Shown: one piece after another, positions 1,102 to 64,000 of the stretch
How positions within the stretch are numbered: the stretch's first letter is position 1
Layout: every line of letters starts with the position of its first letter
Virus record (IMG/VR): IMGVR_UViG_3300031576_000036
Coordinates: 3,148 to 67,147 of that record
Origin: a virus
Direction: 5' to 3' (one strand)
Length of the DNA: 64,000 nt
Position numbers and translations under genes: made by a program
The notes under the pieces: generated by a model
The model's database searches: none
What the model saw: only the letters and a program-made list of their open reading frames with translations
What the model was told of the DNA's origin: nothing

Positions 1102-1602
1102 ATGCAAGACAATCAACATAACAACGACAATAGCAAAGAATGGCCTTCCACATTCGAGCAATGGTTTCGCGCCAATTTGGGCGACTATGCAAGCGACATC
1201 GCCAATCACGGCGCGGACGCTGGCTATCCTCACATCACCTACACGAGCGACACCGTTGAGATTTTCGATCAATACGACGCGGAGATTTGGGATATGGCGA
1301 TTGCGATGGCGGACGGTATGGGAGCAAAGAACGTCGCGGAGTTCATCTCAGGCTTTAGGCGTGATGATATGCTCGCGGGCATCCACACGTTCAAAAACTT
1401 GATGGTCTGGTTCGCGTGTGAGGAGTTGGCGCGGAAGATTGAGAATGGGCCACCAACTTTCGTTTGCGCAGAGTGCGAAGAGAGTTTCGAGGATGAAGAC
1501 GACCTGACGGAAGGGCTTTGTTATTGGTGCGAGCGGGACAAGGAAGAGAAGGAAGAGAAGGAAGCTGCTTCCAAACCCCAAGAGGAGGTAATCGCGCAAT
1601 GA
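1102..1602 (+). CDS. acidic hypothetical early protein with C-terminal CxxC...CxxC
   Basis: GGAG RBS; very D/E-rich; CAEC and CYWC motifs; ATGA overlap with next gene. Confidence 0.75.
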   Translation: MQDNQHNNDNSKEWPSTFEQWFRANLGDYASDIANHGADAGYPHITYTSDTVEIFDQYDAEIWDMAIAMADGMGAKNVAEFISGFRRDDMLAGIHTFKNLMVWFACEELARKIENGPPTFVCAECEESFEDEDDLTEGLCYWCERDKEEKEEKEAASKPQEEVIAQ

Positions 1603-1982
1603 AAGGCTATCGCTTTTATCTCGAATTCCCAGACGCGCAATCAAAGCGCGCACACTCCTCCAAGCGCGGCGGCGGCTCGGAAGGAAATGTGTTTGCGCTC
1701 TGTTTGGACTCTCCGCCTCGAATGGACGCTAACGCGCTCGGCGGTTGGGTGCAGGAAGGCGTAGGCGCTGTTCACTATCAATCGAACTCGCCTGTCTGTG
1801 GCTCCTCAACTTCTCTGCGCCGATTGCAACTGTTTTGCAAGCGCATCTCAGAGGCAGTGGCTAGGGAAATTCACCCGGCCTTGTTCGAGTATTTGGGCAA
1901 TGCCGGCAACAACTACAACGAAAACAACCAAAACAACGAAAAGGAGCAATTAGAAGAAAATGGCAAAACGAAAAACGGATAA
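1599..1982 (+). CDS. hypothetical phage protein
   Basis: GGAGG RBS before ATG 1599 (MKGYRFYLEF...), ATGA coupling to upstream gene. Confidence 0.7.
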   Translation: MKGYRFYLEFPDAQSKRAHSSKRGGGSEGNVFALCLDSPPRMDANALGGWVQEGVGAVHYQSNSPVCGSSTSLRRLQLFCKRISEAVAREIHPALFEYLGNAGNNYNENNQNNEKEQLEENGKTKNG

Positions 1983-2991
1983 CAACGACAACAACGGGCA
2001 AGTGGAGTTCTCCCTTGCCCGCGCAACTGGTGAGGAACCTTTGAGTTTCGAGCCGCTGTACACAGTCGGAGACGTGCTAGAACTTGACCCTAAAGACCTT
2101 GTTATTGCGCAAGAGAGCAAATTCGATCCTCTCTTTGACAAGCGCGCAGAGGATGAGGACAAAGAACTCGCGGCGGCAATGGCCACAGAGGGTTTCAACA
2201 GCTTGATTCAAGTCGTTGAGCGCGCTAATCCTGATGACCCATCAGTTTCATTGTTGCACGTCGTAGCCGGACGCCGCAGGGCGCTGGCGGCGATTGAAGC
2301 GGGCGTGGCTGTGCAGGCGCTCGTTCTCAATCCCAAGTTGAGCGATTGGCAATTGGTAGGCGCGATGATCTCAGAGAACGAGTTGCGCAAAGCGGACAAC
2401 TTGATCAACAAGGCGCATAAGGCGCAGAGGTTCGTTGAGCTTTTTTGCGAGCAGTTCCGGCCAACGAGCGGAGAGAGCGCAGAGGTCGGCGATGATGGGG
2501 AGATTGTATACAACGGCGTGGCGTGGAAGGCTACTGCCGCTCAGCGTAGGGAAGCCACTTCCGCTGTGGCGGCAAGATGTGGAGTCAGCGAACGCCGCGT
2601 TAGGCAATTTTTCGAGTTGTTGACTCTCGCTCCCGCCGTCCAAAAGGCCATCGAAGCCGGGAAGGTTTCGGGAGAGATCGCGCGCGGCTGGAAAGACCTC
2701 ACCCACGATCAACAAACGCGGCGGTTGGCGAAGGAACTCGAAAAGGCTGCTACGACCGCTGGCAGTGGAAGCGGTAAGGCGTCTGCGTGGCCGAACAAGA
2801 TTGCCTTCAACCGCGCTACACTCGAAACTCTGTACGAACAAGGGGAGGGGTTGGGAATGCCCGCTAACGTTCTCAACTTCCTCTCTGTTTACTTGGGCTA
2901 CAACACGGTTGAGGATGCGGGCTTGAAGTGGTTGACGAAGGCGATTGCTCCGGTAATAGAAGAGGATGGCGACGAGGATGACGACGAGTAA
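1960..2991 (+). CDS. parB: ParB-like protein (ParB N-terminal CTPase-type domain plus HTH)
   Basis: VVAGRRRALAA (GxRR arginine patch), ISENELR (ENxxR), HTH-like ATSAVAARCGVSERRVRQFFELL; AAGGAG RBS. Confidence 0.8.
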   Translation: MAKRKTDNNDNNGQVEFSLARATGEEPLSFEPLYTVGDVLELDPKDLVIAQESKFDPLFDKRAEDEDKELAAAMATEGFNSLIQVVERANPDDPSVSLLHVVAGRRRALAAIEAGVAVQALVLNPKLSDWQLVGAMISENELRKADNLINKAHKAQRFVELFCEQFRPTSGESAEVGDDGEIVYNGVAWKATAAQRREATSAVAARCGVSERRVRQFFELLTLAPAVQKAIEAGKVSGEIARGWKDLTHDQQTRRLAKELEKAATTAGSGSGKASAWPNKIAFNRATLETLYEQGEGLGMPANVLNFLSVYLGYNTVEDAGLKWLTKAIAPVIEEDGDEDDDE

Positions 2992-3397
2992 GTTAATTCC
3001 CCGCATCCCAGCGTTGCTTTGTCCTCACTGCCGCCAAGACATCGCAACGAAGCTCTACGAGAACAAGAAGCTTGAGCAACAACTTAGGAAGTTGCTCAAG
3101 CTCTTGCATCGCAGACGGGTTCTAGGGGGAAGCAAGAGTAATAGTAATCGCCGCAAGATGGCGATGATTTACCTTCGGAGGTTAGTTATGAACGCAGAAG
3201 GGAAAGTGATCGAGAAGAACGACAAGGGAGGGCAGGCGTTGCGGAAGCTTTCCCACGAGCTAGCTGAACGCCTATGCAACGCAAGCTTGCTATGGGTTGC
3301 AAACGATTTGATGACCGATGCCGGGATTGCAGACACGGCAGCGGAGATTGAGAAAGGCTTGGTGGAGTTTTTCTTTGCACCTAACAACGAGACCTAA
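2966..3397 (+). CDS. hypothetical protein with CxxC
   Basis: ORF overlapping the parB end; LCPHCR motif; start codon uncertain. Confidence 0.55.
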   Translation: MATRMTTSKLIPRIPALLCPHCRQDIATKLYENKKLEQQLRKLLKLLHRRRVLGGSKSNSNRRKMAMIYLRRLVMNAEGKVIEKNDKGGQALRKLSHELAERLCNASLLWVANDLMTDAGIADTAAEIEKGLVEFFFAPNNET

Positions 3398-6089: not shown

Positions 6090-6545
6090 GCATTGAAGGA
6101 AGAGAAAAGCGCGAACAGAGCCAATTGTGGTAGTTGGCTCCATTGTGGGAGAGGGAGAGGGAGAGCGTGAGTGTAGTCAACTTGCTTGCGCTCTCCCTTC
6201 TGAAACGAAATCAGAACAGATATTTGAATTGAAACAGGTTCGTAGAAACGGCTTTCTTTGGGGAAGTCGCTTCCGGTAGCCCTTGGTATCAACGATAGCA
6301 ACCAATCGTCAAGGGCGACGACATTCGCATTCAAGTACAGCGAGTACGTTAGATGCGGGAGGGTTGCCGTCATCAGCTTCCAACTAAGCCCACTCCCTCC
6401 CTTCAACTTCCTCGGATAACAAACGGGAAAGCTGCTGCAACGATCCTGGTTGGTTCTCATAGATTGTCTTGGACTAGGATCACAAATGAAAGAAGCTTGC
6501 CCCTTTACAAACGAGGAAGCTGGGGGAGGGAGTGGGGTTGTTTGA
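6090..6545 (+). ncRNA. candidate structured ncRNA or long 5' leader
   Basis: about 460 nt with no credible ORF after a promoter; several stems, e.g. 6118-6126/6132-6140, 6158-6172/6184-6198, 6389-6414/6512-6536. Confidence 0.5.
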
Positions 6546-7007: not shown

Positions 7008-8334
7008 AACAGATCGTTCGCGGATTGAATGCGCGCAACAGTGTATGCGCAAGCGATTTTGGCAGTACGAAGCGCAACTGGCAGAAACGGATTCCGCGAA
7101 CGGGGCGAGGGGGATCGAACCCAACAAGCCACAGTTCGCGCTTGAGATTGGGAGCGGGGTTCACTTGGGGATGGAAGTCCTACTCACCCAAGCTATTCGT
7201 TACCAAACTGATCCTTTAGTGAACGGCGCGGACAACCTCGTTAAGACGATGATATTAGAAGGAACCTTGGATATTGCAGTGAGGGCGGGAGATGCGAGGT
7301 ACGACGAAAAAATCCTCCCCTTCTTCGAGAGCTACAACAACCGAGAGGAAGCTACTTCCAATGAGGACGACGAGGCCGAAACATTCTCAGTCTATGCCGT
7401 CGAGGAAGGCCGCGCGCTCGTCGAGGGACTAATACGAACGTATGCACACGCTCCGAACGGCTTAGCGCGATTGCTTGACGAATACGAGATCATCGCGGTT
7501 GAGCAGGAGCTTGAAGTTCCCTTGTCCACAGACGGCAACGTTGTGCTGATGGCCAGACCGGATGGCATCCTTCGTTCTCGCGCTGACCATCAGTTGTATG
7601 TGCTCTCGTTCAAAACCGCTACGACCTACGACCGCCGCAAGGCCCGCGCGGGAATGTACGACACTCAGGGAATGTCTGAGTTAATCGCCGCGCAACATCG
7701 CTACAACGAAACCTTCGCGGGGGTGGTGATGGTCTACCTTGTTAAAGGCTACAAATCGCAAGACAAAGACGACCAATTGTGGAAGCACAACAACGGCGTC
7801 GTTCGTCCTTACTTCAAACCAGGGGTAGTGAGTGATGATGATGACTACCGATTCTCTTATGATTGGCTTACGGAGTTCGGCGAGACAAAGCGGCTCGGCA
7901 AAGGGTTCTCCAAAATCAACCTCTGGGACTCGTGCTACATCGGCATCAAAGAATGGATGGAGCGGATAGTTGCGGGGAGGGAAGTTGACCTCAATCCTGA
8001 CTTACTTGATAAGTATGTGGTAATGCCGCCGCCTTACTATCGTAACGAAGCGGATTTGGAAGAATGGAAACTCCAAGCCCGCCATCAAGAGATGTTGATT
8101 CACGATCTCGCAACAACGGCGAACGCGATGGTAGCGGCGGGAGATAGCGAAGGTCTGAAAACGTTCCTTCCCATCGCCTTCCCCAAGAACCGACAGAGTT
8201 GCGCTTACCCCTTGCCGTGCTCGCTGATTCCAATCTGTCACGAGGGGCTGGGGGATGGAGTTGGGGAGATGGTTTTGGAGTCAGGGAGCTATAAGCAGCG
8301 CCAAGCAAATCACCCTAATGAGGTTGAAGGATAA
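6982..8334 (+). CDS. PD-(D/E)XK superfamily exonuclease (Cas4/AddB-like)
   Basis: N-terminal QQCMRK, GSGVH, ARPDG...SFKT, C-terminal C..PLPC...C cluster; next to a Sak4-like ATPase. Confidence 0.75.
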   Translation: MSNQLQVLKTDRSRIECAQQCMRKRFWQYEAQLAETDSANGARGIEPNKPQFALEIGSGVHLGMEVLLTQAIRYQTDPLVNGADNLVKTMILEGTLDIAVRAGDARYDEKILPFFESYNNREEATSNEDDEAETFSVYAVEEGRALVEGLIRTYAHAPNGLARLLDEYEIIAVEQELEVPLSTDGNVVLMARPDGILRSRADHQLYVLSFKTATTYDRRKARAGMYDTQGMSELIAAQHRYNETFAGVVMVYLVKGYKSQDKDDQLWKHNNGVVRPYFKPGVVSDDDDYRFSYDWLTEFGETKRLGKGFSKINLWDSCYIGIKEWMERIVAGREVDLNPDLLDKYVVMPPPYYRNEADLEEWKLQARHQEMLIHDLATTANAMVAAGDSEGLKTFLPIAFPKNRQSCAYPLPCSLIPICHEGLGDGVGEMVLESGSYKQRQANHPNEVEG

Positions 8335-8873: not shown

Positions 8874-9884
8874 ATGCCAACACCAAACACAAAATTCTCA
8901 ACCGCGCTGTGCTACGGCGCGACGAAATCAGGAAAGACCCGCGAAATCGGCGCAATGAGCCTCTACATCTACCAAACTTACGGCAAAACGACTCGGCTCA
9001 TCAGCGCGGACGGCGGCGGGTGGGAGTCGGTACAGGATTACGTTGACGCGGGGATTATCGAACCTATCAACATAAGCGACGCGGCAACCCCACTCACGTT
9101 GTTGCATAGGCTGGCGCGAGGGGATTGGGAAGTGGAAGGGAAGTGGCTTCCCAGGGATCACAAGGATCAGCAGTTCTCCAACGTAGGAATGTACGCCATC
9201 GAGGGTTTCTACTCCATCTGCCAGCTTCTAATGGGCGACCAAATAGAGAAAGGCCGGAAGATCGCCGAGGACGTAGTGGGGAAGTTCGCGGAAAAAGACG
9301 CTGACACCGGCGAGCAGTTCACTTTCGGCAACGCCTCTCGCGCCCACTATGGGTTCGTGCAGCAACGGCTACTGCAACTGATTCGGGAATTTCAGGGCTT
9401 GTGCGCAGTGGGGGTCAATCAAATTCTCTTTACCTCTCTCGAATCAAGTGGGGAAGATGAGTTCACGAACGCGAAAATTCTCGGCCCGGCCAGCGCGGGC
9501 AAGGCGCTCACCCAGATATTGCCACAGAGAGTGGGAGATTTGATTCACCTAGAGATTGTAGCGAAACCAGCGGCTAAAGAAGGTCAACCGCCCACGCAAG
9601 AATACCGTGCGTATTTCCAGCCTCATATTGACTCGGAGATTCGACGCGCGTGGCCTGCGAGCTTACGGCTGACTCCGACGCTCAATCTGGAATTGCAGAA
9701 GGACGATGAGCTTAGGAAAGGGTATGTGGTGCTCACCGATGAACGAGGAGCGACTAGAGAGGGAGTAAGTAGGCTGTGGAGATGGAGGGATAGGACGCAA
9801 TCGAAAGGAGTCGAAGAACTCCGAAAAATAATGAACTCGAAAACAACAACTTTAACAACAACCGAAAAAGAAAGGACAAAGTAA
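8874..9884 (+). CDS. AAA ATPase, Sak4/AAA_24-like recombination protein
   Basis: Walker A YGATKSGKT, ISADGG, YAIEG; sits in an exonuclease-ATPase-SSB cassette. Confidence 0.7.
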   Translation: MPTPNTKFSTALCYGATKSGKTREIGAMSLYIYQTYGKTTRLISADGGGWESVQDYVDAGIIEPINISDAATPLTLLHRLARGDWEVEGKWLPRDHKDQQFSNVGMYAIEGFYSICQLLMGDQIEKGRKIAEDVVGKFAEKDADTGEQFTFGNASRAHYGFVQQRLLQLIREFQGLCAVGVNQILFTSLESSGEDEFTNAKILGPASAGKALTQILPQRVGDLIHLEIVAKPAAKEGQPPTQEYRAYFQPHIDSEIRRAWPASLRLTPTLNLELQKDDELRKGYVVLTDERGATREGVSRLWRWRDRTQSKGVEELRKIMNSKTTTLTTTEKERTK

Positions 9885-9890
9885 AACAAA

Positions 9891-10688
9891 ATGGCAAAAC
9901 GAAAATCAAGTGACGGCAACGAATTCACGGGAGCACACGAGGAAATCGCTTCCTCCGTTGGGGACTTCGATTTCAACGATCCCTCCCTCTTGGAGGAAGA
10001 AGTTGATCAGGTGAACGCCGATGTGGACGCAGATGAATTTCCCCCTCCTCCTCCAGATGGCATCTACAAAGTCAACTGGGATTTCTCTGAGAGCGACCCT
10101 GAAAAGCAGTTCTCTCTCAGGAAAGACAGCAAAGGGAAGGCATTCGGAATGACCAAATTGGTGGGAACGATAATTGACGCCAAGGATCAAAACACCCCAG
10201 AGCGCCTGTGGCTGAACCGCAAAGTGTTCTCAATGGTCAACACCATTGTGTTTCAGAGTGGGGCGAGCGGATTCGGGGATTGGCTCAAGTCCGTCGGGCG
10301 TAAGAATGTAGTGCAAGCGGTAGAACAGGCGCGCAACAAAGCCGAACAGCTTAACCTGTATCGCAAAGGCGCGGAGGATGCGATTGTGGAAGGCGCGCAG
10401 GGATGGGTGGCTATCTGCTGGGAAGGCTCTTACAAGCTTGAGAATGATGCTCTTGGTGGAACTTCATACATTCGTCCGAAAGGGAAGTACGCGAACGGAG
10501 AAAAGATCGCCAAGGATCATCCGGTGCAGAAGTTCACCAATATGAAAGCCTTCCCGACAAACGACAAGGGGGAGAGGGTTCCGAAGGTCATAGTCGTTGA
10601 CCCGGAGGACGGAAACGAATATGAGGTGTTGGCGCAGTTGACGGTGAAGACGTATATTCCGCTGCGCGAAGGGCAGCAGTCGGAATAA
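9891..10688 (+). CDS. putative single-stranded DNA-binding protein
   Basis: acidic, PPPDGIYKV motif, beta-rich; directly follows the Sak4-like gene. Confidence 0.5.
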   Translation: MAKRKSSDGNEFTGAHEEIASSVGDFDFNDPSLLEEEVDQVNADVDADEFPPPPPDGIYKVNWDFSESDPEKQFSLRKDSKGKAFGMTKLVGTIIDAKDQNTPERLWLNRKVFSMVNTIVFQSGASGFGDWLKSVGRKNVVQAVEQARNKAEQLNLYRKGAEDAIVEGAQGWVAICWEGSYKLENDALGGTSYIRPKGKYANGEKIAKDHPVQKFTNMKAFPTNDKGERVPKVIVVDPEDGNEYEVLAQLTVKTYIPLREGQQSE

Positions 10689-11146: not shown

Positions 11147-11554
11147 ATGTCAAACAAAATAATCCTAACCGGCGACAACGACTCTCCAATCGAGGAAGCA
11201 GCTTCCTCCGTGGAATTCCCAATGATTGACGAACGTTGGGAACCCCCTTTGGAACGGATGTTGCTGGATATGGAAGTCGTTGCGCTCGCCAACCGCGATG
11301 CGGGCATTTACCGTCGCGCGGGTTTGAAGGTGGACTCCGCCGAAGACGTGGAACTGTATATTCAGCGGCAACTCGGAACCTACGGAGGTCAGTTATCAAT
11401 GTCCCAAGCTGAATACTACCGAATGCGCGTCGCGGAACACCTATTCACCCTATGGATCACAACGGTAATTCAGCAGCAGCAACAGCGCGCGATGGAGACT
11501 AACCAAATCCTCGCGGAGATGAATCGTCCGCGCAAAAGTGAGCGCAGACATTAA
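11147..11554 (+). CDS. hypothetical protein
   Basis: GAGGAG RBS, operon packing. Confidence 0.7.
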   Translation: MSNKIILTGDNDSPIEEAASSVEFPMIDERWEPPLERMLLDMEVVALANRDAGIYRRAGLKVDSAEDVELYIQRQLGTYGGQLSMSQAEYYRMRVAEHLFTLWITTVIQQQQQRAMETNQILAEMNRPRKSERRH

Positions 11555-14569: not shown

Positions 14570-14572
14570 TAT
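14544..14572 (+). promoter_or_regulatory. putative sigma70-type promoter
   Basis: TTGACA (14544-14549), 17-nt spacer, TAATAT (14567-14572); A-rich upstream. Confidence 0.55.
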
Positions 14573-14577
14573 GCTTC

Positions 14578-28953: not shown

Positions 28954-28963
28954 ATTAGCGTTG

Positions 28964-53080: not shown

Positions 53081-55363
53081 TCAAGACTCAGAAACTACGC
53101 TGCGGGGTCCAGTTCCACTTAAATCTGCCTTTTGCTGAATTTCCGGCATAGCCTGGCCGCTCGGAGGTCTACCCTCTGGCCTGCCGGTTCCATTTTGCGC
53201 CCCCGGCGGTCCCCCTTGCTGCCCTTGTTGCATCATCCCAGCCAACCCCTGCTGGATCATTGCTTCCGGCCCCATTGATTGCATTATTTGCATCTGCGCC
53301 TGCGCCATCATCGCCTGCGCTTGAGCTTGAAGCATCACGGTGTACTTCATTTGCATCTCTTGCCACGCGATGTAGCGTTCGACCATATTCGTGGTTTCGG
53401 GAGGCGCTTCGCCGAAATTGGGGAGGTTCCAGGCTTTGGCGAGGTCCCACGGGGAGATAGGGAAGTTTTTGGGGTCCCGCCACAGTTGTAGTAGGAAGAG
53501 TTTATTTTGGATGTCGGTGACGTTGAACGAGGAGCGAGGGGTGATGTTGAAAACGAACTGCCGTCCGTGTAGCAATCCCTTGCGCATCAACGGAGCGTCT
53601 TCCGGGAGTCCCGGAACTTGGTCTGGAATGAGCGATCCCGGTTTGAAGTCGAAGTCTTCTTTCGTCACGCCGTCTCGTCCGAGCGTGGAGAGCCGTCGCG
53701 CGGTGGTGTCGAACTCCAGTATAAGCCACATAAACATATACCCAAGGTCCGTCAACGACCTTTCCATATCGCGGGCGAAATCGCTTATCAAAGGCCCTGC
53801 GGCCTGAAGCAACCTGTCAATGCTCTCCGCCGAGGGAACTTGCTGAAGCTTAGCTAGCGCGGTGAAGTCCTGGACTCCGATTTGGTAGTCCATATCGGAC
53901 TGGAACTTCTCGTAAACCGGAAGCCACTGTTGGGGAAGTTCGTAAGATTGCCAATCCAATAGGGGCTTAACAGGGTCATTTATCATTCCGGTCTGAGCAA
54001 GTCTCTCGCCCGGAACTCTCGTGTTCAAAACCTCCATCGCTTGCCGCGAGTATTCGTTTTCGTTGAACGTCAATGGCGGATCAAGGCGGAGTTCGAGGGA
54101 ATCTACCGCGCCGCGAGCAAGCGAATCTCCAGCGGCTTGGATGGAGTAGTTTTCGCCGACGATATTGAACCCCAAGGATTGCCAAGGCCATTTATCAAAA
54201 GTGAACTTTACCAAGGGAACCTTGCCGTGCCACCACGGACTCGGACCGTCGTAGAGAACGCAATGATTCGTCCATACGATCAAACGTCGTAGTGGGTAGA
54301 GAAGACAGTCTTCACGGGTGGTTGGGCGAGTGTTGGGGGTTAGTTGTTGACCGCCGCTCCCTAACATTTCCCCGTTGGGGCCATAGTCGCTTCCGGCTGC
54401 GGCGAGAGTGAGCGTGCCGTCCGGGATTTCAGTTCCCAGCGAAGGAATTCCGTACTCCCACATAGTCCCCCGTGTGAGCGACTGAGCGTAGCCGCGAGAG
54501 ATGTCCTCGCTATGCAACAGCGCACCGGAGTCATTCACCGACATATCGGCGACATAGGTGTAGTAAACGTCTACTTCGGGAAAAGGGGAATTAACGTCGT
54601 TCATTGACGAGTCAACTGCGCCACCGCCGAGTCCGAGATACTTGAAGATAGGAGCCGCCCAGGTGGAGATGAGTTTCATTGGGCCGGGAGCCACACTATT
54701 CATAACGCGGTCGGGGATGATTTTGCCGAGGGAAGCGGCTTCCGGGAACGCCGCCGACGCAGCCGCAATAGACATTGTGTCTTGAATGTGAACCGCGTAG
54801 GCACGCTGAAGGTCTCCATCCCTGGAGGGTTGATCCTGTAGCACTTGCGTCATCCCGAACGCTCTAGTGGTTACGTCCGCTTGTTCGCTCCCGAATGGAC
54901 TCTTGCCCCAAGTAGGAGAGAGGTAGCCTGCTCCGAGGACCGCCCACTGTAGAGCCTCTTTGATCCTGCGGTCCACGAAACTCGTCGTCCACCAATTGTC
55001 TCGGCGTTTGTTGAGTATTTCAGCTTGTTCCTCCAGGTCCTCGTTATACGTCTCGTATTCCCAGCGAGGATTCAGGTTCGTAAGGGTCGAGATAATCTCT
55101 CTGATTTGGCGTTTGAGGCGGTTGAATTGCACCATCGAGAGCTTGCGGTTGCTCGCTGCTCGAACTTGATTGGAGATGACCGCTATCGCTGTGTCCAAAT
55201 CCTTATATGCAACCTGTCCTTTCAAGTGCGTCATCCCCGCTGCGAGCGATCTCGTGAGCCACGCTATTTTATGGTCGTCCGCAGAGTCATATCGTGGGCA
55301 CATCCATCCTAACGAGTAGAGTTGAGAAGTTTGGTTGGTGAAGGGAGTTTCGACGTAGGCCAT
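53081..55363 (-). CDS. portal protein
   Basis: 760 aa downstream of terL; YDGPSPWWHGKVP, M/Q-rich C-terminal extension. Confidence 0.8.
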   Translation of the reverse strand: MAYVETPFTNQTSQLYSLGWMCPRYDSADDHKIAWLTRSLAAGMTHLKGQVAYKDLDTAIAVISNQVRAASNRKLSMVQFNRLKRQIREIISTLTNLNPRWEYETYNEDLEEQAEILNKRRDNWWTTSFVDRRIKEALQWAVLGAGYLSPTWGKSPFGSEQADVTTRAFGMTQVLQDQPSRDGDLQRAYAVHIQDTMSIAAASAAFPEAASLGKIIPDRVMNSVAPGPMKLISTWAAPIFKYLGLGGGAVDSSMNDVNSPFPEVDVYYTYVADMSVNDSGALLHSEDISRGYAQSLTRGTMWEYGIPSLGTEIPDGTLTLAAAGSDYGPNGEMLGSGGQQLTPNTRPTTREDCLLYPLRRLIVWTNHCVLYDGPSPWWHGKVPLVKFTFDKWPWQSLGFNIVGENYSIQAAGDSLARGAVDSLELRLDPPLTFNENEYSRQAMEVLNTRVPGERLAQTGMINDPVKPLLDWQSYELPQQWLPVYEKFQSDMDYQIGVQDFTALAKLQQVPSAESIDRLLQAAGPLISDFARDMERSLTDLGYMFMWLILEFDTTARRLSTLGRDGVTKEDFDFKPGSLIPDQVPGLPEDAPLMRKGLLHGRQFVFNITPRSSFNVTDIQNKLFLLQLWRDPKNFPISPWDLAKAWNLPNFGEAPPETTNMVERYIAWQEMQMKYTVMLQAQAQAMMAQAQMQIMQSMGPEAMIQQGLAGMMQQGQQGGPPGAQNGTGRPEGRPPSGQAMPEIQQKADLSGTGPRSVVSES

Positions 55364-55499: not shown

Positions 55500-56045
55500 C
55501 TAGCTCCTTTTTTGGTCGTAGTTGAGCACGTAGAGATTCACCCCTGGGTCTACGCGCTTGTCCCAAGACATTTTGCGAGTGTCGTTGCGCCGCATTGCTT
55601 CCCTGGCAAACGCTTTTCCTTTTTCTGACATCTGTTCCATCGCGGATCGCAACTCTCGCCGATTCTCGCGCACGGTTTGCTCGAATTGTTGTTGCTCGCG
55701 CTCAACGAACTCTTGGCGCTTTCGGCATTCAGCCTGGGTGAGACGCTTTTCGAGCGAGCGCATTTCGTTGAGCGTGGAGGCTTCTTTGCGCTCGTAGCCT
55801 TGGGGCGCGGAGTCGCTATCGCTTCCCGCAGGGATAATATGGCCGCGAGCGTTCTCGAAGTAAACCGTTCCTGATAGCTGTTGATTCTGGACGCGCGCGT
55901 TCATCCATCTTGGCAAAAGCGTGAGTTCGGCTTTGCAGCCTTTACGCTCACAAGGACAGGAAATGACTTCCGCGAACTCCGCCAACGGTCGCTGAACTTC
56001 GTGGATTTGATCGCATTTGTTTCCGCTGTACGTATAAGTTGGCAT
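55500..56045 (-). CDS. FmdB-like zinc-ribbon protein with coiled coil
   Basis: MPTYTY...C...CPC N-terminus. Confidence 0.6.
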   Translation of the reverse strand: MPTYTYSGNKCDQIHEVQRPLAEFAEVISCPCERKGCKAELTLLPRWMNARVQNQQLSGTVYFENARGHIIPAGSDSDSAPQGYERKEASTLNEMRSLEKRLTQAECRKRQEFVEREQQQFEQTVRENRRELRSAMEQMSEKGKAFAREAMRRNDTRKMSWDKRVDPGVNLYVLNYDQKRS

Positions 56046-56129: not shown

Positions 56130-58322
56130 TTAAATGTAAGTAGGACGCATCACGCCCGCTCGTTCCTCTTCCAGTTTCGTAAAGTCCTTCGGATCGAACC
56201 GAGTCAGCCCTGGATAACCCTCTTTGAACGTAGCAAACTTAACCAACTTCTCTTGTTCCTCTTGCATCGAGCGCCATTGTGGGGTTTCGCCGCGATAAAT
56301 GTCAAGCTCGTGCAGCGTTACGAGTCCTATTCCGAGCGAGAACAGATCGTCGTCGTGAGCGGACTTGTCGTGTTCGAGTCGGATGTTGCGGGAGTTGTCG
56401 GATTCGTGAACGACGAAATCCCGCATTTCGTCTATCGTCCACGGAGAGTTGAGTTCGACGAACATTCCCTTCAAGAGCTTAAAGAGCCAGGAAGTCAGCA
56501 AGGGTCGAGTGCCGTGGCCACTCCCGGTTCCTGTCGTCTTCCAGCCTAGGTTGCCTATTTTGTTCCCGCTGAGATCGCGTTTGTCCGCCGTACGACGCAT
56601 ATAAAACCGCGTCCAACCTCGTTTGCGAACTTCGAGTAGGCAAGCGCCGCCATCGCTGGCGGTTTCAGGAGAGAACATCGGATAGGCCATTCCATTTTTG
56701 TAGGAGTTCCAAGTTGAGTAATAGTGGAGGAGCATTAGCGCAAAAGGCCACATCTCCAGCCCCCCAAGTTGGTCGGAGGCGAACGAAGCGACTTGGGAAG
56801 CGGCTTCCCCAAAGTCCCCTTTGCGGATCACTTGGAGCGAGGAGCGATCCCTTCCGATTCCTTCTGAAGCGTCTAGGCTAACCGCGTATTCTTTGTCTTC
56901 CCTCGGATATTCCCACACCCAAAGCGTGTTGAGATGAGAGTGAACACTGGAGTAGCCGGGGAATTTAATCGGGGTCCAAAGCCAATCCACTTCATCCCTA
57001 CCTCCCATCCATTTGACGTGAATACTCGGAGCGTCTTCTAGCTTCTCCTGCGCTTCCGCTCCGAGCCACGACGGGACTTCTGTGCCGGAGAGCTTAAACA
57101 CGCCTACGGGCTGCTTCAAGCGACTCTCATACTTTTGAATGAGTTGAATGGAGAACACAGATTTCGACCGCGACTGAAAACAACTCAAATCGTCGCTGGC
57201 GTATTCCGCCAAAAAGTCTCCCAACTTATCCTTCCGCTCCGCAAAGTCGTAGGAATACTCATACCACCACTGCGTTGCCAATGGCATCTCCCAATCCCTA
57301 CCCATCGCTTGCGCTAAGAAAGGATCAGACCGCACATACTCCTTCGCTTTCCGCGCGTGCTCTACAACGTAGTCCTTGGGCTTCCAGTCTTGAGGAATAG
57401 GAATCGCCGCCAGCCAACCATCAGTCGGATACAGGTTGTCAGAGATATAGTAGGGAAGGAAAAGCGGGCGCATTACCGATAATCCTTGTGGCCAGAGTTC
57501 TTTGTTCTCTTCCCATTTTGTATGCCAGTAATCGTGTCGGCCTCCAGCGGTAGATTCCATCACACCAAAATGCAATGAGGTTGGATGCCACGCGCCGAAC
57601 AGCGATGCGTCTACGATCAGTTCTGGTTTGTCGAAATTTGGAATCTCACTTAGGTGGAATAATTTTACCGTGTCGCCTCTCGAAATCCCCGTTCCCTGTG
57701 TGCCGTGCTGAATTGAGATGTAGGAGTTGCGGGAGTCACAGCGCAAGAAAATTTCGCCTGATTGATACTCTTTTACGTCCGGTGGAATGAGCCACCAAGG
57801 TTGCTTAGGCAAAGAGCGCGAGATCATCTCTGAGAGTAGCCACGATTTATCAGGATCACTACTGCCTATAACAGCGGCGCTATCAGGCACGAATAGCATT
57901 CGGTGCATTATCTTGCTAGTAGTGTCGGTCGTGCCTCCTCCCTGTCTGGCTTTAAGCAACTGCACCACAACAGGCTTTCCTTGCTCCTCCAATTCCGCTT
58001 GGGCGAGCGTCAACACCTGTTGGTATTTGTTTTGCTTGAAAGGCACGAGCGCCAGCGTCTCAGCGTGCCGCACGTAGTGGTAATTCTCGGCCCAATGCAA
58101 GTAATCCAGTCCGCACAACAACCTTTCGTTCGAGATGAACTGTTGTTCGTCTTTCGTGAGCGGACGTTGAAGTTCCACGACTCGTCGTTTGTCGTCGCGG
58201 ATAGCTAAGGACTCAAGGTGGGAGATGCAAGCCTGAATGTAGGCAGGGGTGTAATAGATCAGCGATTTACCATCGCTTTCTAACTGGGCTATTCGGTTGG
58301 CAACAACTTTTCTCGAATACAT
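56130..58322 (-). CDS. terL: terminase large subunit
   Basis: LLKARQGGGTT (Walker A), FHLSEI (Walker B), ESTAGG (motif C), SLDASEG and HDDDL nuclease acidic residues. Confidence 0.9.
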   Translation of the reverse strand: MYSRKVVANRIAQLESDGKSLIYYTPAYIQACISHLESLAIRDDKRRVVELQRPLTKDEQQFISNERLLCGLDYLHWAENYHYVRHAETLALVPFKQNKYQQVLTLAQAELEEQGKPVVVQLLKARQGGGTTDTTSKIMHRMLFVPDSAAVIGSSDPDKSWLLSEMISRSLPKQPWWLIPPDVKEYQSGEIFLRCDSRNSYISIQHGTQGTGISRGDTVKLFHLSEIPNFDKPELIVDASLFGAWHPTSLHFGVMESTAGGRHDYWHTKWEENKELWPQGLSVMRPLFLPYYISDNLYPTDGWLAAIPIPQDWKPKDYVVEHARKAKEYVRSDPFLAQAMGRDWEMPLATQWWYEYSYDFAERKDKLGDFLAEYASDDLSCFQSRSKSVFSIQLIQKYESRLKQPVGVFKLSGTEVPSWLGAEAQEKLEDAPSIHVKWMGGRDEVDWLWTPIKFPGYSSVHSHLNTLWVWEYPREDKEYAVSLDASEGIGRDRSSLQVIRKGDFGEAASQVASFASDQLGGLEMWPFALMLLHYYSTWNSYKNGMAYPMFSPETASDGGACLLEVRKRGWTRFYMRRTADKRDLSGNKIGNLGWKTTGTGSGHGTRPLLTSWLFKLLKGMFVELNSPWTIDEMRDFVVHESDNSRNIRLEHDKSAHDDDLFSLGIGLVTLHELDIYRGETPQWRSMQEEQEKLVKFATFKEGYPGLTRFDPKDFTKLEEERAGVMRPTYI

Positions 58323-59047
58323 TCTTCTTCCACGATCTCGGCTTCTATCACGGGGGCTTCCGGCAACGCTTTTACCTCTCTCCCATTCAACGCCTTTGTG
58401 AGCACCTTATCCGTCTCTTCCCACTGTGGCAACCCCATCGCAAGGTTATTGGTGACGTTCTGTTGGTTGACGTTCACAACCGTCCCAGGGCCTTCTTGGA
58501 TCAACCCTCCTGCCTTCATCAGCAGTTGTCGGTCGTTGAAGCCGTGGCGTTCGCCTTCGACGGCTTGGCGAATGGAAGCGTCCACGACGGAGTTCATCTG
58601 CAATTGCAACCGGATTTTCGCGGCTTCGAGTCCATACCAATAGATAGCTTTACAAAGGTCCCCTACGAAGTCCTCGTAGGGAAGTTTGGCCAGGTCGCAA
58701 GCCTGTTCCAACGAGGGTTCTCGGAATTCCTCGGTAGGAAATAGTTGTTGCTGATGCAAATCCTCCCACGCAAGGGCGAACTTGCGCAGCGAGTCGTATC
58801 TGTGCGCGCCCATCCGCGCGAGCAATATAATCGCTTCGATCCCGGAGCGCCCTTGGACGATAAGGCCGTCGAAGAGAGGAAAGAGGTGTTCGCTGAGGGG
58901 GACGTGGGTGATGGGCAATGGGGGTTGGTCAGACTTTGGGATGTTTTTAACAATAGTCGCTGCGGAAGCGCCTTCCCCATTCGTAACCGGAATATGAATT
59001 TCGTATTCCCCAAGTTGCAATTTAGTCCCGAATTTCTTTCTCGGCAT
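58289..59047 (-). CDS. putative terminase small subunit
   Basis: overlaps the terL start; helical, with VNVNQQN strand and IEAEIV C-terminus. Confidence 0.55.
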   Translation of the reverse strand: MPRKKFGTKLQLGEYEIHIPVTNGEGASAATIVKNIPKSDQPPLPITHVPLSEHLFPLFDGLIVQGRSGIEAIILLARMGAHRYDSLRKFALAWEDLHQQQLFPTEEFREPSLEQACDLAKLPYEDFVGDLCKAIYWYGLEAAKIRLQLQMNSVVDASIRQAVEGERHGFNDRQLLMKAGGLIQEGPGTVVNVNQQNVTNNLAMGLPQWEETDKVLTKALNGREVKALPEAPVIEAEIVEEECIREKLLPTE

Positions 59048-61255: not shown

Positions 61256-61863
61256 AGCAATTTCAATTTCTCACGTTCGCTGGGGGAAGTGACTTCCTCC
61301 CACTTCACATCTTTGACCTTGTGGTTATTATGCCACACTTTCTCGTCAATGTTCGCCCGCCACCAACGCCATAGTAGTGTGAACCACTCCCGTCGCGGCA
61401 ACACCCTCGCCCTCCGCACGTCCATCCTCTCCCAATCCTGCCAAGTCGTATAATGAACGCCGATCTCCCTCGCAATTTCACTCGTGGGTGTTCGCATCAC
61501 GACGGCTCGAAAGTATTGCATCCAAGCCTTGAACAGCTTTTGCTTGGGGGTGAGAATGCTAGCTTTTGCAACTATCGCCGTCGTGTGCTTTCGCTCTCCG
61601 GCTAGGGTCCGTACTCGTTGCGCTCGCTTCACGTCTGCTCGGTCCCGCTCTACCAGAGCTTGTTCGAGAGTCCACAACAGCGCGTCTTGTTGCATATAAC
61701 GAAAGGGGATGTCTATGGAGTTTGCGCGTTGGCCGCTCTTGAGACATAAGCGCGCGAGGGTGCCCTCGATTCCGCGCTCAGGTAACAATAGAAGTAAGTC
61801 GCGGCGCTCGGAGAACGTCGTGGCTTTGTATTTGTGTGGAAGTTGGAGGTCGAGGTAGAGCAT
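61204..61863 (-). CDS. HTH DNA-binding protein
   Basis: PTSEIAREIGVHYTTWQDWE XRE-like HTH; ATG 61863 just after the upstream stop. Confidence 0.6.
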   Translation of the reverse strand: MLYLDLQLPHKYKATTFSERRDLLLLLPERGIEGTLARLCLKSGQRANSIDIPFRYMQQDALLWTLEQALVERDRADVKRAQRVRTLAGERKHTTAIVAKASILTPKQKLFKAWMQYFRAVVMRTPTSEIAREIGVHYTTWQDWERMDVRRARVLPRREWFTLLWRWWRANIDEKVWHNNHKVKDVKWEEVTSPSEREKLKLLWRPHSRRFHNRRLLEI

Positions 61864-61865: not shown

Positions 61866-62771
61866 TTAAAGTCCGTGCCTCTCCAAAATCTCGCGTATCT
61901 CCGGCTTGTCCCTTCGCATCAACGCAACAACCTCTGGATTGTGGTTCCCCGGCGAGGGCAACCAACCTCCTTCCGTAATCCCCGCCAGCAACAAGTTCAT
62001 CCCCTTCGGCCCCCGCGATCCATTGTATGCTCTTGCCTCCGGGTCCAGCCAGGTTCCCTCGCTATCAAATAAATTCCCGGCGCTATCCACAAATACTACT
62101 TGTTCCAAAAGCAAGCCAGAGATTCCGTAGTTTGTTCTCAAATTATCCAGCAGTTCTTCCCGCACTTCAGATTCAACATCCGTCAAAAACATAACCGGTT
62201 CGCACGGATGCGACGCGAACACCGAATGGGTCTTGTGTTGTTGGTCAATGAGGGCGATCAGTTTCATTTGACCCGCGACTTGTTTGGAGGCTTGGCGGCG
62301 TTCGTAGATTTTGGCCGCTTGCGCTTCCGGGGTTAGCGGCGCGTTTGCAACTGAAGGCTCATCCGCGAATTCTACCTGAGGTTCCCGCGCTTCTTGTTTC
62401 CGCAGCTTCTTAGACTTCTCGTATAGCCTCTCTGTCCCTGGAGCAAACACCACCATAAAAGGATCGCTATAGCCGAGTTCGCAAGCGTTTATGAACATCT
62501 CAAACGCGCGACGAGCGATGGAGGATTTGCTTACGCCGAATTGTTTTGAGAATTTTGTGAGCTTTTCGTTAAGCCCCGTTGGAAGGTAGAGGGAGGTTAT
62601 TTTGCTGCCCTTGGTGGACGGCCCTTGGAAGCGATTTCCGGCGTGCGTATTGTTAGCCGCCGCGATTACCTCCGGGTCTTCTCCCAGACGCTCGGCTACC
62701 TCAGCGATTGCAATCGAGGACATTCTGCCGCGAGAGGGTTTGTTGACTGGATTCTTGGAATGGTTTGCCAT
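61866..62771 (-). CDS. ribbon-helix-helix (CopG/Arc-like) domain regulator
   Basis: KITSLYLPTGLNEKLTKFSKQFGVSKSSIARRAFEMFI; first gene after a strong promoter. Confidence 0.7.
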   Translation of the reverse strand: MANHSKNPVNKPSRGRMSSIAIAEVAERLGEDPEVIAAANNTHAGNRFQGPSTKGSKITSLYLPTGLNEKLTKFSKQFGVSKSSIARRAFEMFINACELGYSDPFMVVFAPGTERLYEKSKKLRKQEAREPQVEFADEPSVANAPLTPEAQAAKIYERRQASKQVAGQMKLIALIDQQHKTHSVFASHPCEPVMFLTDVESEVREELLDNLRTNYGISGLLLEQVVFVDSAGNLFDSEGTWLDPEARAYNGSRGPKGMNLLLAGITEGGWLPSPGNHNPEVVALMRRDKPEIREILERHGL

Positions 62772-62781
62772 AACGATGAGG

Positions 62782-62810
62782 ATTGTAGACGGACAAGGTG
62801 GGGTTGTCAA
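62782..62810 (-). promoter_or_regulatory. near-consensus sigma70 promoter, nearly leaderless transcript
   Basis: minus strand TTGACA, 17-nt spacer, TACAAT; ATG 10 nt after the -10 box. Confidence 0.8.
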
Positions 62811-64000
62811 GGGTATATTTAGGTTTTAGGGATAAATAAGTAGAAAGTGGAGGGGAAATAGGATAAAAGTGAAGTACAAATTGTGTATAAAGTAAATGGA
62901 ATATAGCTAGGTTCTAGTATGTGAGGGTATATGTAAGATATGTGGGGTTGTGTGGATTTATTAGAACGCGCGAGGTGTGTGGCCGTAAGTCCTTTTATTT
63001 CCCCGATATGTATACATATCTGACGCTCTCCGATCCAAATATAGACCCAAATATGTTTTTTTTTATAAGTGTGTAAGAGAGAATGCGGTGGGGAGGGGAT
63101 ATAAGTCGGTCGGTAGGGTTGAGATATTTATACATATACCAGTGGTGAAGGTGCAGGAGGTTACGAGGAGGTTAGAATTTGGCAATAAAGGCAGAGTTTG
63201 GGAGTGGGTTGGTTAGAAAGGAAGGCGTGCTAATGTACTACTTAGGAGTTGCTTGCAGGATCAGATGTAAATATGAATAGACTTATTGTAGGATATTAGG
63301 TATATTGGGGTTGTAGGTTTACTATGGAGGAAATATGGAGGAAATATATGTTTAAGGATTTTATGACTTTGGCGCAATTGGAGTTGGCCGGGTTTGAGTT
63401 AGTGAATGAAACATTGGCTAAGCATCCTAAGTATGAGAGTTATCGTCGTAGGTGTAAAGGGTGTGGGTTGTGGATCAAGAGTTCGTTGCATAATGGGGAA
63501 TGTAATAGGTGTTTTGATAAGGAGAATAAGATGACGAGGAAGGGGGATAGTGCGTTGTACAGAGGGCAATAGTAAGTAAGGGCGCTAAGAGGCTATATGA
63601 ATAACGCTAATAAGCTATATTGCGCAATCTAATTATTAAAGAATTAGTAGTTAAGACCTGGATTATTAGCTCCAGTAGCAACGGCGACGCAGGCCGGAAG
63701 TGACTTCCGGGAATGGAGCTACAATAAATAATATTAAAAGTAATACTAATGCCTTGGGGTCGCGAGAGTGCCCGACCGTTGCACGCTGAAATTTGTCGGT
63801 TCACGTTAGATATTATAAGCATAATATAGTAATAAATATTATTTATAGTAGTATTAGTATACATAGTAGTAATAAAAAAAAACCAGCCTAGACAGTAAAA
63901 AAAATCACAAAAGGAGAAAACTACCCCTGTCGAATGAGAAAAAAGTTCGGGTGGCCGCTTATAAAATATAGGATAGAGGAAAAAAATAATATGTGTGGCC
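62811..64000. other. AT-rich, strand-skewed, largely non-coding region (control region, origin or genome end)
   Basis: abrupt drop in GC, very few C on the + strand over about 62.8-63.6 kb, TAA/TAG-rich tracts. Confidence 0.6.
63324..63572 (+). CDS. small Cys-containing hypothetical protein
   Basis: repeated GGAGG RBS-ATG; CKGC and CNRC motifs; start could be 63336 or 63348. Confidence 0.45.
   Translation: MEEIWRKYMFKDFMTLAQLELAGFELVNETLAKHPKYESYRRRCKGCGLWIKSSLHNGECNRCFDKENKMTRKGDSALYRGQ

Follow-up and report, generated by a model that had tools for sequence, protein, structure and literature searches.

Evenly spaced copies of a 13-bp palindrome along the genome of an uncultured phage, and an orphan ParB-like protein as their possible reader

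Why should a phage carry the same 13-bp palindrome about once every 1.8–2 kb along its chromosome, mostly inside genes, and which protein might read it? The question arose from a stretch of 64,000 nucleotides (the window, G000:C1:3148-67147), part of the whole genome of an uncultured phage (G000; 67,147 bp).

The palindrome lattice is under DNA-level selection

Exact copies of the palindrome, GGAAGYNRCTTCC, number 32 in the window and 36 in the whole genome, where about 0.02 would be expected; dinucleotide shuffles of the window (n = 100) yielded a mean of 0.02 copies and a maximum of 1. An earlier note on this DNA had claimed at least 32 exact copies, and all 32 were found at the positions given for them (Table 1). 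Copies with one mismatch are also in excess (14 in the genome, compared with 0.63 expected and a maximum of 3 in 30 Markov shuffles). The ten listed in the earlier note are all real, and three more were detected.

Table 1. Palindrome copies and the gene of the proposed reader, in window coordinates
Feature	Coordinates	Strand	Context or mismatch
ParB-like gene P0033, 343 aa, proposed palindrome reader	1960..2991	+	Pfam, motifs, AF2 model, Foldseek, hhalign
Exact site	1560..1572		in DUF7222 ORF 1102-1602
Exact site	2550..2562		within ParB-like gene, directly ahead of HTH
Exact site	6262..6274		end of doubtful 50-aa ORF, or non-coding
Exact site	7347..7359		in exonuclease-like gene 6916-8334
Exact site	9139..9151		in Sak4-like gene 8874-9884
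Exact site	11194..11206		in ORF 11147-11554
Exact site	12066..12078		in Dda-like helicase gene 12028-13485
Exact site	14511..14523		non-coding, 20 nt upstream of ORF 14544-14930
Exact site	16369..16381		in DNA polymerase gene 15754-19563
Exact site	16461..16473		in DNA polymerase gene 15754-19563
Exact site	17204..17216		in DNA polymerase gene 15754-19563
Exact site	19706..19718		in ORF 19560-19769
Exact site	21149..21161		in 1922-aa ORF 20616-26384 (-)
Exact site	23361..23373		in 1922-aa ORF 20616-26384 (-)
Exact site	25749..25761		in 1922-aa ORF 20616-26384 (-)
Exact site	28774..28786		in overlapping ORFs 28504-29022 (-) and 28607-28861 (+)
Exact site	30141..30153		close to 5' end of ORF 28964-30199 (-)
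Exact site	31593..31605		in 1331-aa ORF 31165-35160 (-)
Exact site	32716..32728		in 1331-aa ORF 31165-35160 (-)
Exact site	35429..35441		in ORF 35168-36544 (-)
Exact site	36572..36584		3' end of ORF 36554-37063 (-); next start 28 nt downstream of site
Exact site	37361..37373		in ORF 37093-37530 (-)
Exact site	40660..40672		in tail-fibre-like gene 39568-45222 (-)
Exact site	45194..45206		5' end of tail-fibre-like gene 39568-45222 (-)
Exact site	46904..46916		in ORF 46217-47305 (-)
Exact site	48647..48659		non-coding
Exact site	51179..51191		in ORF 50788-51870 (-)
Exact site	51923..51935		non-coding
Exact site	54731..54743		in portal gene 53081-55363 (-)
Exact site	56796..56808		in large terminase gene 56130-58322 (-)
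Exact site	61285..61297		ORF edge, or non-coding
Exact site	63696..63708		in ORF 63607-63864 (-)
One-mismatch copy	746..758		position 2
One-mismatch copy	9941..9953		G5>A
One-mismatch copy	13125..13137		C9>T; absent from earlier list
One-mismatch copy	19422..19434		C9>T
One-mismatch copy	22701..22713		G5>A
One-mismatch copy	27179..27191		C9>T; absent from earlier list
One-mismatch copy	30679..30691		C9>A; absent from earlier list
One-mismatch copy	48716..48728		G5>A
One-mismatch copy	49840..49852		position 11
One-mismatch copy	52335..52347		C9>T
One-mismatch copy	55959..55971		G5>A
One-mismatch copy GGAAGCGCCTTCC	58964..58976		position 8
One-mismatch copy	62627..62639		C9>T

When GGAAG/CTTCC pairs were counted in the genome at spacers of 0 to 11, 37 cases were found at a spacer of 3 and only 0–2 at any other. 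The variant GGAAGCGCCTTCC occurs once, on top of the 36 copies of GGAAGYNRCTTCC. All arm positions are invariant and compensatory pairs are absent; one-mismatch copies likewise carry no compensating change in the opposite arm. At 22 of the 36 sites the inner Y can pair with the inner R, where independence would predict about 20. Recognition looks like that of two independent half-sites, a hairpin being less fitting, and this would indicate a dimeric protein as the reader.

Thirty-one of the 36 sites lie inside ORFs, in all three reading phases (19/7/5, read as E-A/V-A/T-S, K-x-L-P and G-S-x-F). After synonymous-codon shuffling (n = 300) a mean of 4.6 copies remain (maximum 7), essentially the five non-coding sites that were left unshuffled. 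Since the coding copies vanish, the signal resides in the DNA and is not a peptide motif, as had been proposed from the different reading frames. The lattice is therefore under DNA-level selection in this genome.

The sites are spaced far more evenly than expected by chance: the coefficient of variation is 0.53–0.55, compared with 0.96 under random placement, and none of 20,000 random placements was as even as the observed one. The largest gap between sites is 4,534 bp (P 0.006–0.015). The remark that putatively mobile genes lack sites stands as an observation, as no site was found in the three HNH genes, the polymerase insert, the FGE gene or the tail-fibre segment 40673-45193. It is, however, statistically weak: the probability of zero sites is 0.14 if the tail fibre is left out and 0.012 if it is counted, for segments picked post hoc.

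The ParB-like protein and phages that share the motif

Most of the 71 ORFs of G000 that were scanned with Pfam match no family, and the ParB-like protein P0033 was the only one in the genome found to have a recognisable dimeric DNA-binding domain. The RHH, HTH and TerS binders suggested earlier lack Pfam support among these ORFs. P0033 matches HTH_ParB (PF17762) with 24.8 bits, just 2 bits above the cut-off of 22.6, and ParB_N does not reach its threshold in the genome. Box II (GxxRxxA) reads VVAGRRRALAA and box III (ENxxR) reads ENELRKAD; among 39 homologs, G104, R107 and N140 are invariant and R105 and R143 are at least 90% conserved. The AF2 model has a pLDDT of 87.1, with helices 193-242 above 90. 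Its top Foldseek matches are Noc, ParB, KorB and Spo0J; they span the N-domain, the best being Noc structures 7nfu and 7ol9, and the HTH region aligns with the ParB DNA-binding domains 6s6h and 1vz0. The C-terminal helices (285-342) of the model, where a dimerisation domain would be expected, are covered by no solved-structure match. Taken together, motifs and model place P0033 in the ParB/Noc/KorB family. The earlier idea of a dimeric reader with a ParB-like candidate agrees with the two independent half-sites, and P0033 is the best candidate.

ParA profiles PF13614 and PF01656 gave no match in G000 or in phages G005, G003 and G001 (controls were positive in 14/14 genomes), and an LG[KR]GL-type ParA-binding motif, as given in the available part of PMC12704722, is absent from the N-terminus of P0033. 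With both the ATPase and the binding motif missing, a ParABS partition system was discarded. Tyrosine integrase (PF00589) and Tet_JBP gave no match in the same four genomes. A restriction-modification site was also rejected, as Pfam detected no cognate methyltransferase domain in the 71 scanned ORFs, many of which match nothing.

The same motif forms lattices in the otherwise unrelated clade of phages G004, G005 and G006, with 19, 39 and 22 copies, respectively (0.65–0.72 per kb). The 11-bp core of this clade, GAAGTNACTTC, is present in 59 copies in G005, 34 in the 21-kb locus L274 and 14 in the 21-kb locus L277. Within the clade, 25 of the 30 sites that can be aligned are unchanged and at the same position, compared with 395 of 5,289 control 13-mers (7.5%). 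The aligned sequences indicate that the motif is under purifying selection there.

Comparison of all G000 ORFs with the clade by tblastn and phmmer revealed nothing in common except a 70-aa ORF, in G006 only. The ParB-like family is the sole protein family demonstrably common to G000 and G004-G006, in a survey whose profile-level comparison covered the ParB pair alone. An hhalign comparison of the 20-sequence clade ParB family with P0033 gave a probability of 92.8% (E 3.9e-7, 207 columns), and the alignment covers the N-domain and the HTH and extends past them. In sequence-sequence comparison the two proteins were reciprocal best among 56 and 73 partners (30.6, with runners-up at 22.8 and 19.9); in a permissive blastp the ParB pair ranked 5th among 3,543 pairs, and no pair reached significance. 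Their recognition helices are similar, not identical (SERRVRQ and TNKHVRD).

The motif is accompanied by a ParB gene in G000 and in 6/6 lattice-bearing clade loci checked (48–100% identity). Other palindromes, too, go with ParB-like genes: phage G003 harbors a 13-bp palindrome of its own, in 10 copies, together with a ParB_N gene, and the mycobacteriophage Corndog, with 34 copies of a 17-bp palindrome, encodes the ParB-like gp90. However, no lattice is found in G001, the closest relative among the fetched genomes (ParB-like gene 32% identical), even if one mismatch is allowed, nor in the 50 kb of Burkholderia phage AH2, whose homolog is 37% identical to the clade ParB. Because ParB-fold genes are common among phages (PMC12704722, available part), the co-occurrence may be due to chance.

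Loading sites for a clamp, and other explanations

The explanation we favor, with a probability of about 0.5, is that the palindromes are loading sites of an orphan clamp of the ParB/KorB/Noc type that would cover the whole genome, a plasmid-style arrangement as yet without explanation in phages. P0033, encoded by the phage itself, would recognise the palindromes as its cognate sites and load there. The N-terminal part of P0033 has the CTPase-type fold of ParB (with GxRR and ENxxR), and a ParB helix-turn-helix is present as well, with no ParA partner; in this it is like Noc and, in function, KorB. A P0033 dimer would read the two GGAAGY half-sites and, by analogy with ParB, KorB and Noc, the loaded protein would form a closed, nucleotide-dependent clamp and move off along the DNA. 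Given loading sites about 1.8 kb apart and no gap larger than 4.5 kb, clamps travelling 1–2 kb could cover the entire phage chromosome; selection for such coverage would maintain even spacing and place sites in coding sequence wherever the protein tolerates them. The indirect evidence that P0033 reads the palindrome is a protein family and a motif common to the two lineages; this step, and everything downstream of it, we infer. The predicted coat may serve to mark or condense phage DNA, to shield it, to time transcription, or to feed replication or packaging.

An alternative that we consider unlikely, yet worth weighing, is that the sites are bound by another dimeric protein, either a shared host factor or a small phage ORF without family, the ParB-like gene being a bystander. 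A common host protein would predict the same motif in two lineages without other detectable shared genes; the lack of a lattice in ParB-bearing G001 and AH2 and the abundance of ORFs without family agree with this possibility. However, G000 and the clade differ in GC content (52.6% vs. 57.5–59.8%) and in motif detail (inner Y/R vs. T/A; centre mostly S vs. W; outer G/C obligatory vs. optional), and two related readers fit these differences better than a single host protein. Furthermore, five bacterial genomes with motif clusters, none of them identified as the phage's host, contain just 16–101 copies per 5.2–7.4 Mb, and the only recognisable dimeric DNA-binding domain in G000 is that of P0033.

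We find it improbable that the palindrome is an enzyme target for modification, nicking or cleavage, be it by a ParB-assisted modifying enzyme or by a homing or recombination nuclease. Free-centred palindromes are typical of enzyme sites, three HNH genes are present, and a gene with an FGE-sulfatase domain follows the ParB-like gene at a distance of 431 bp. Activation of thymine dioxygenases is known for some phage ParBs, but those ParBs have no DNA-binding domain, according to the available part of PMC13229309, and P0033 has one. Moreover, an enzyme target leaves enrichment, even spacing and positional conservation unexplained, Pfam scans of G000 found neither methyltransferase nor Tet_JBP domains, and symmetric nicks would break the genome.

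Less probable still is an element acting in RNA or at translation starts, either as a small hairpin or as a start-associated sequence. Of the 59 core sites in the G005 clade, 11 have an ATG 0–1 nt past the 13-mer (about 3.5 expected), and several occupy the entire gap between genes; however, a spacing constraint would also yield start-adjacent sites where non-coding room is scarce. The hairpin would be weak (−3.3 kcal/mol), the arms are invariant without compensatory pairs, and the flanks of the sites show neither conservation nor a T-run. The predominance of intragenic sites, in all three phases and in both arms of the genome, also argues against this option.

A passive origin of the motif, as a copy of a HIP1- or REP-type repeat that occurs throughout the host genome, is very unlikely: motif pairs 85–110 bp apart that adjoin an IS200-like Y1 transposase in Cytophagales look like REPINs with their RAYT, but these genomes carry 16–96 copies per 5.2–6.7 Mb (at least 35-fold sparser than in the phage), their 8-kb loci show clustered motifs and no lattice, and, as a 13-bp insertion cannot sit in frame, the phage sites must have arisen by point changes under selection.

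Relation to known dispersed sites

To call the lattice an undescribed system, as had been suggested, is too strong: dispersed-site precedents are known in Cluster O phages (PMC4351075, available part), in KorB-OB (PMC11790492, likewise) and in Noc-NBS. KorB, an HTH-bearing CTPase clamp of the ParB family, has palindromic OB sites, described as a 16-bp sequence, that are scattered over the ~60-kb IncP-1 plasmid RK2. Some of these sites have no promoter within 1 kb, and in its CTP form KorB slides as far as 1.5 kb (available part of PMC11790492). A likeness to P0033 is seen in structure 8qa9 of KorB, among its top matches. RK2 carries 12 OB sites; their core is a 13-bp palindrome of 6-1-6 layout around a central S, and its inner AGCSGCT would match the form commonest in G000. 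In contrast with OB, the phage sites are packed about threefold more densely, at regular intervals, and mostly lie inside genes. The plasmid RK2 also encodes a ParA homologue (IncC) and a clamp-locker (KorA), whereas G000, in which no ParA was found, is not known to have a KorA-like partner.

On the Bacillus subtilis chromosome, Noc recognises about 70 scattered palindromic sites of 14 bp, at a density of about 1 per 50 kb compared with 1 per 2 kb in G000. Through an N-terminal amphipathic helix, this cellular protein anchors DNA at the membrane. It resembles P0033, whose best structural matches are Noc structures, as an orphan ParB paralogue without ParA; it lacks the ParA motif and uses CTP, as the available part of PMC12704722 describes.

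Cluster O mycobacteriophages carry >30 copies of a 17-bp palindrome, to which the available part of PMC4351075 assigns no function. One of them, Corndog, is non-temperate, has ~70 kb and encodes a ParB-like protein, gp90; its sites are kept among relatives and missing from the host, and in that part of the paper the authors draw no link between sites and gp90. On re-count, we found 34 copies. Like Corndog, G000 has invariant arms, a free centre and some sites inside genes, and it shares with the Cluster O type a high copy number (36) and the lack of PF00589. Placement differs: Corndog sites crowd the right arm, 24 of 34 fall between genes or close to 5' ends, and their spacing is not even (CV 1.06, P 0.77), whereas in G000 31 of 36 are intragenic and regular, without the early-arm crowding of the Cluster O type. 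Cluster A stoperators, with about 24–36 copies of a 13–14-bp site, genes included, are bound by one phage protein (partly from the available text of PMC4351075). Stoperators are asymmetric, oriented with transcription and found in temperate phages with a repressor; a system of this kind was rejected for G000, where the site is palindromic and no integrase (PF00589) was found.

A broader reading, speculative and itself rather unlikely, is that the lattice is a loading grid with its spacing tuned to the sliding range of the phage ParB clamp, so that every phage chromosome is coated and gathered into a ParB condensate, a protein-only 'self' compartment. If so, the compartment would mark phage DNA, fend off host nucleases and defence, and pass that DNA on for replication and packaging. 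Lytic phages in general would then organise their genomes in this way, many lineages having arrived at it independently, each with a palindrome of its own.

A regularly spaced palindrome lattice

The 67,147-bp record of phage genome G000, which carries a terminal direct repeat of 127 bp, holds 36 copies of the 13-bp palindrome GGAAGYNRCTTCC and one copy of GGAAGCGCCTTCC. An earlier note, made by eye, had claimed at least 32 exact copies in the window; 32 are found, while 100 dinucleotide shuffles gave a mean of 0.02 and a maximum of 1. When the pairing of GGAAG with CTTCC was counted across G000 at spacers of 0 to 11, spacer 3 yielded 37 cases and each other spacer 0–2. The ten one-mismatch copies named in the same note are also real, and the window contains three more. 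Genome-wide there are 14 such copies, compared with 0.63 expected (30 Markov shuffles, maximum 3), and in ten of the 14 the mismatch falls on position 5 or its mirror, position 9, with a transition in nine of these ten. Two-mismatch copies are not enriched in G000 (16 vs. 9.9).

When genes were called with a rough greedy method, which gave 78 ORFs and 93% coding sequence, 31 of the 36 sites fell within ORFs, where they lie in all three phases (19, 7 and 5) and yield the different peptides that had been read as a mark of a DNA-level motif. When synonymous codons were shuffled within genes 300 times, the mean count fell to 4.6 (maximum 7), which equals the copies in unshuffled non-coding DNA. 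The lattice is a signal at the DNA level.

Spacing is regular: the coefficient of variation (CV) of the gaps is 0.53–0.55, compared with 0.96 for random placement, and none of 20,000 random placements was equally even. The longest gap, 4,534 bp, lies within the tail-fibre-like gene (P 0.006 if the genome is treated as circular, 0.015 if linear). The proposal that mobile genes are site-free stands as an observation, since no site is found in the three HNH genes, the polymerase insert, the FGE gene or most of the tail-fibre gene; its statistical side is modest, with P(0) of 0.14 for the 3.5 kb that exclude the tail fibre and 0.012 with the tail fibre included, in segments picked post hoc. This hint would fit an origin of the sites in place via point mutation. 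The stretch of about 390 residues between the two polymerase matches, which lacks a lattice site, is the intein mentioned in the earlier note. Among the HNH genes, one carries NUMOD4 and one a resolvase-type HTH. Three sites at genome positions 273, 375 and 693, outside the window (locus L283), fall within 420 bp near the record start, beside the terminal direct repeat, and make up the sole tight cluster of the G000 lattice.

Features of G000 discussed in the text, in window coordinates
Feature	Position	Strand	Evidence
ParB-like gene (P0033)	1960-2991		Pfam HTH_ParB 24.8 bits (cut-off 22.6)
FGE-sulfatase domain gene	3422-4162	+	199 bits; two genes downstream of the ParB-like gene
DNA polymerase gene, interrupted	15754-19563	+	PHROG polymerase matches at residues 37-720 and 1108-1237
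HNH endonuclease genes (three)	30630-31172; 45717-46220; 52469-53065	+; +; -	GC 0.43-0.47 vs. 0.526
70-aa ORF	60105-60317	-	72% identical to G006 ORF 12519-12728; 62% to one in L144

The anatomy of the G000 sites was also examined. Their arms are invariant and their flanks are information-free. At position 6, C makes up 69% and T 29%; at position 8, G makes up 61% and A 34%; the centre is mainly G or C. Of the 36 sites listed, 22 have complementary bases at the inner Y and R, about 20 being expected if the half-sites vary independently. As RNA, the 13-mer would form a 5-bp stem with a triloop of just -3.3 kcal/mol. Taken together, the base frequencies, the independence of Y and R, the weak RNA fold, the half-site counts and the bare flanks fit a symmetric dimer that reads two GGAAGY half-sites on duplex DNA, and favour it over a hairpin, which fits poorly. 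A Chi-like site was rejected because lone half-sites are not notably enriched in G000 relative to its relatives and the fixed adjacency would have no reason. Also discarded were an intrinsic terminator (the flanks lack a T-run), an N4-type hairpin promoter (the sites are too numerous and intragenic) and a tRNA-linked feature (G000 has no tRNA genes).

The motif in a second phage clade and in bacterial genomes

Viral contigs were scanned for pairs of motif sites at a distance of 70–100 bp, and 7 loci turned up. G004 (29 kb), G005 (54 kb) and G006 (31 kb), three of the records concerned, have GC contents of 57.5–59.8%, belong to a second, otherwise unrelated phage clade and contain 19, 39 and 22 copies of GGAAGTNACTTCC, respectively. 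The true core in this clade is GAAGTNACTTC, found 59 times in G005 and, in two further loci of the clade, 34 times in L274 (21 kb) and 14 times in L277 (21 kb). A second scan for the pair pattern returned only G005 and the L274 record. Regularity is again seen in G005, with CVs of 0.60 for the 13-mer (P 6e-4) and 0.65 for the core (P 1.5e-4).

Positional conservation was measured within the G004–G006 clade, whose aligned parts are 65–83% identical. An exact site lies at the same place in a sister genome for 25 of the 30 sites in alignable segments, and the core is kept in 27. Among control 13-mers only 395 of 5,289 (7.5%) are identical at 12 positions, and the centre base of the sites is freely variable. 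Hence, the arms are under purifying selection in this clade. Some of its sites occupy an entire intergenic gap, and an ATG follows the 13-mer within 0–1 nt at 11 of the 59 core sites, about 3.5 being expected.

All G000 ORFs were compared with the second clade, by tblastn at E 1e-2 and by phmmer at E 1, and nothing convincing was found beyond the 70-aa ORF, matched in G006 only. Its G006 counterpart is a 218-bp insert missing from the same place in G005, and the ORF looks like a small mobile gene common to unrelated phages.

A much less likely reading is that the lattice is a passive copy of a genome-wide repeat of the host. The pair pattern was found at 79 loci in 596 Gb of genomes. However, five bacterial genomes with motif clusters hold 16–101 copies per 5.2–7.4 Mb, at least 35 times sparser than in the phage, and none of the five is a known host. 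Some of the bacterial loci have an organization of their own. In Thermoanaerobaculia and Spirochaetia MAGs (L198, L208, L228, L243, L264 and others) up to 16 copies of this 13-mer stand in tandem at a period of 20–21 bp, equal to two helical turns; such arrays look like protein-binding ones. In Cytophagales (L205, L216, L225, L251, L268), GGAAGTWACTTCC occurs in pairs 85–110 bp apart or in triplets beside an IS200-like Y1 transposase of about 183 aa, an arrangement that looks like REPINs with their RAYT.

A ParB-like protein as putative reader

The lattice exists, is under selection and has regular spacing. For its function, our main reading is that the sites are putative loading sites of the orphan ParB/KorB/Noc-type protein of G000, spaced so that sliding clamps reach the whole chromosome; we give this about one chance in two. 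Clamps loaded at evenly set sites would reach every part of the chromosome and form a coat.

The G000 protein, P0033, has a box II (VVAGRRRALAA) and a box III (ENELRKAD) that are conserved across 39 homologs; Pfam ParB_N was not reached in G000. Its AlphaFold2 model (pLDDT 87.1) finds Noc, ParB, KorB and Spo0J as the best matches among solved structures. A HMMER search of 1.84 billion representatives gave 257 matches at E<=0.001, six of them full-length with 33–45% identity; a word-based search gave only 2 matches, and tblastn against GenBank phages gave none. The P0033 gene, which has a DUF7222 gene upstream, contains a lattice site immediately before the HTH.

In the second clade, a ParB-like protein of 414 aa with GHRR and an HTH (P0036) has counterparts of 48–100% identity in all six lattice-bearing loci checked. 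A profile of 20 P0036 relatives matched P0033 with a probability of 92.8% (E 3.9e-7) over 207 columns, which take in one further region besides the N-domain and the HTH; this profile-level comparison covered the ParB pair only. In single-sequence hhalign, run on 560 of about 4,088 pairs plus 129 ParB-containing pairs, P0033 and P0036 are mutual best matches among 56 and 73 partners (30.6, with runners-up at 22.8 and 19.9), and their score exceeds the maximum of 21.9 among the 560 other sampled pairs. In a permissive blastp, where not one of 3,543 pairs reached significance, the ParB pair came 5th. These profile and sequence matches, together with the null outcome of the other searches, make the ParB-like protein the sole protein family shown to be common to both lattice-bearing lineages. 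In G004 and G005, one site directly follows the stop codon of the ParB-like gene.

Both lattice lineages have a ParB-like gene. Against the ParB reading, the gene also occurs where the lattice does not. G001, a distant relative of G000, encodes a ParB-like protein with 32% identity and has no lattice even with one mismatch allowed, and Burkholderia phage AH2 has a P0036 homolog with 37% identity and no lattice across 50 kb. Furthermore, phages are described as frequent carriers of ParB-fold genes (PMC12704722), and the co-occurrence is therefore weak evidence.

Both ParB-family proteins with dispersed palindromes and palindrome lattices in phages are of a known kind. Cluster O mycobacteriophages, which are non-temperate and encode the ParB-like gp90, are reported to have 34 copies of TGTTCGGNNNCCGAACA (PMC4351075). 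On re-counting, these 34 sites are unevenly spaced (CV 1.06, P 0.77), whereas the G000 lattice is even. In Cluster EG Microbacterium phages, an 18-bp inverted repeat is reported to occur 8–10 times, upstream of starts (PMC7302621). KorB is described as a clamp that depends on CTP, with OB as its loading site and a sliding range of up to 1.5 kb (PMC11790492), and certain phage ParBs that lack a DNA-binding domain as activators of thymine dioxygenases (PMC13229309). No genes for a ParA-type ATPase, a tyrosine integrase or Tet_JBP were found in G000, G005, G001 or G003, another distant relative. A search of the literature, supplements aside, found no report in which ParB-like proteins of phages are connected with sites across the genome.

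Few unexplained genes of lytic phages are as common as those with a ParB fold, and an explanation for the Cluster O palindromes has been lacking since 2015. If ParB and palindromes belong together, the phage would use a plasmid-style clamp chromosome-wide and not at a single centromere. Phage ParB-fold genes would thus gain a testable job, and it would be clear why a phage accepts the burden of a 13-bp word every 2 kb in its own coding sequence. Lattice phages would also provide a natural experiment on required clamp travel, since lineages can be compared in both spacing and sliding range.

The P0036–P0059 family (e.g. G004:9376-10620) has an acidic tract near its end, followed by a conserved APDLRxLGIAEP...L peptide; this end may be a putative partner-binding tail. 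An acidic tail also ends P0033 and its homologs.

Relatives of G000 and their own palindromes

No megablast match to 8 kb of G000 was found in GenBank phages, and neither the portal protein nor the TerL relative P0002, each used as a single query, had a match in viral contigs. TerL homologs do exist, the closest being P0002 (63% identity) and P0003 (60%). Among the TerL matches listed, 160 loci on viral or metagenome contigs were examined, none with more than 44% TerL identity; together they contain a single copy of GGAAGN3CTTCC in 2.09 Mb.

Distant relatives have dispersed palindromes of their own, odd-length and in some cases intragenic: tCCGCAAAWTTTGCGGa 8 times in 32.8 kb (G002, the L029 record), CGTAGASTCTACG 10 times in 60.9 kb (G003, the L031 record), TGTAGTSACTACA 4 times (L111) and GACAGSCTGTC 6 times (L155). 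The genes that they have in common with G000 are structural ones only. G003 has a ParB_N gene (G003:51768-52754, 35.8 bits) in which the recognition helix differs, as does the palindrome. Local clusters are also seen, with TGCATCG-N5-GATGCA 5 times within 400 bp (L134:5262-5667) and TCCCTAGGGA 4 times within 500 bp (L144:5847-6334); unlike the lattice, both look like iterons or operators.
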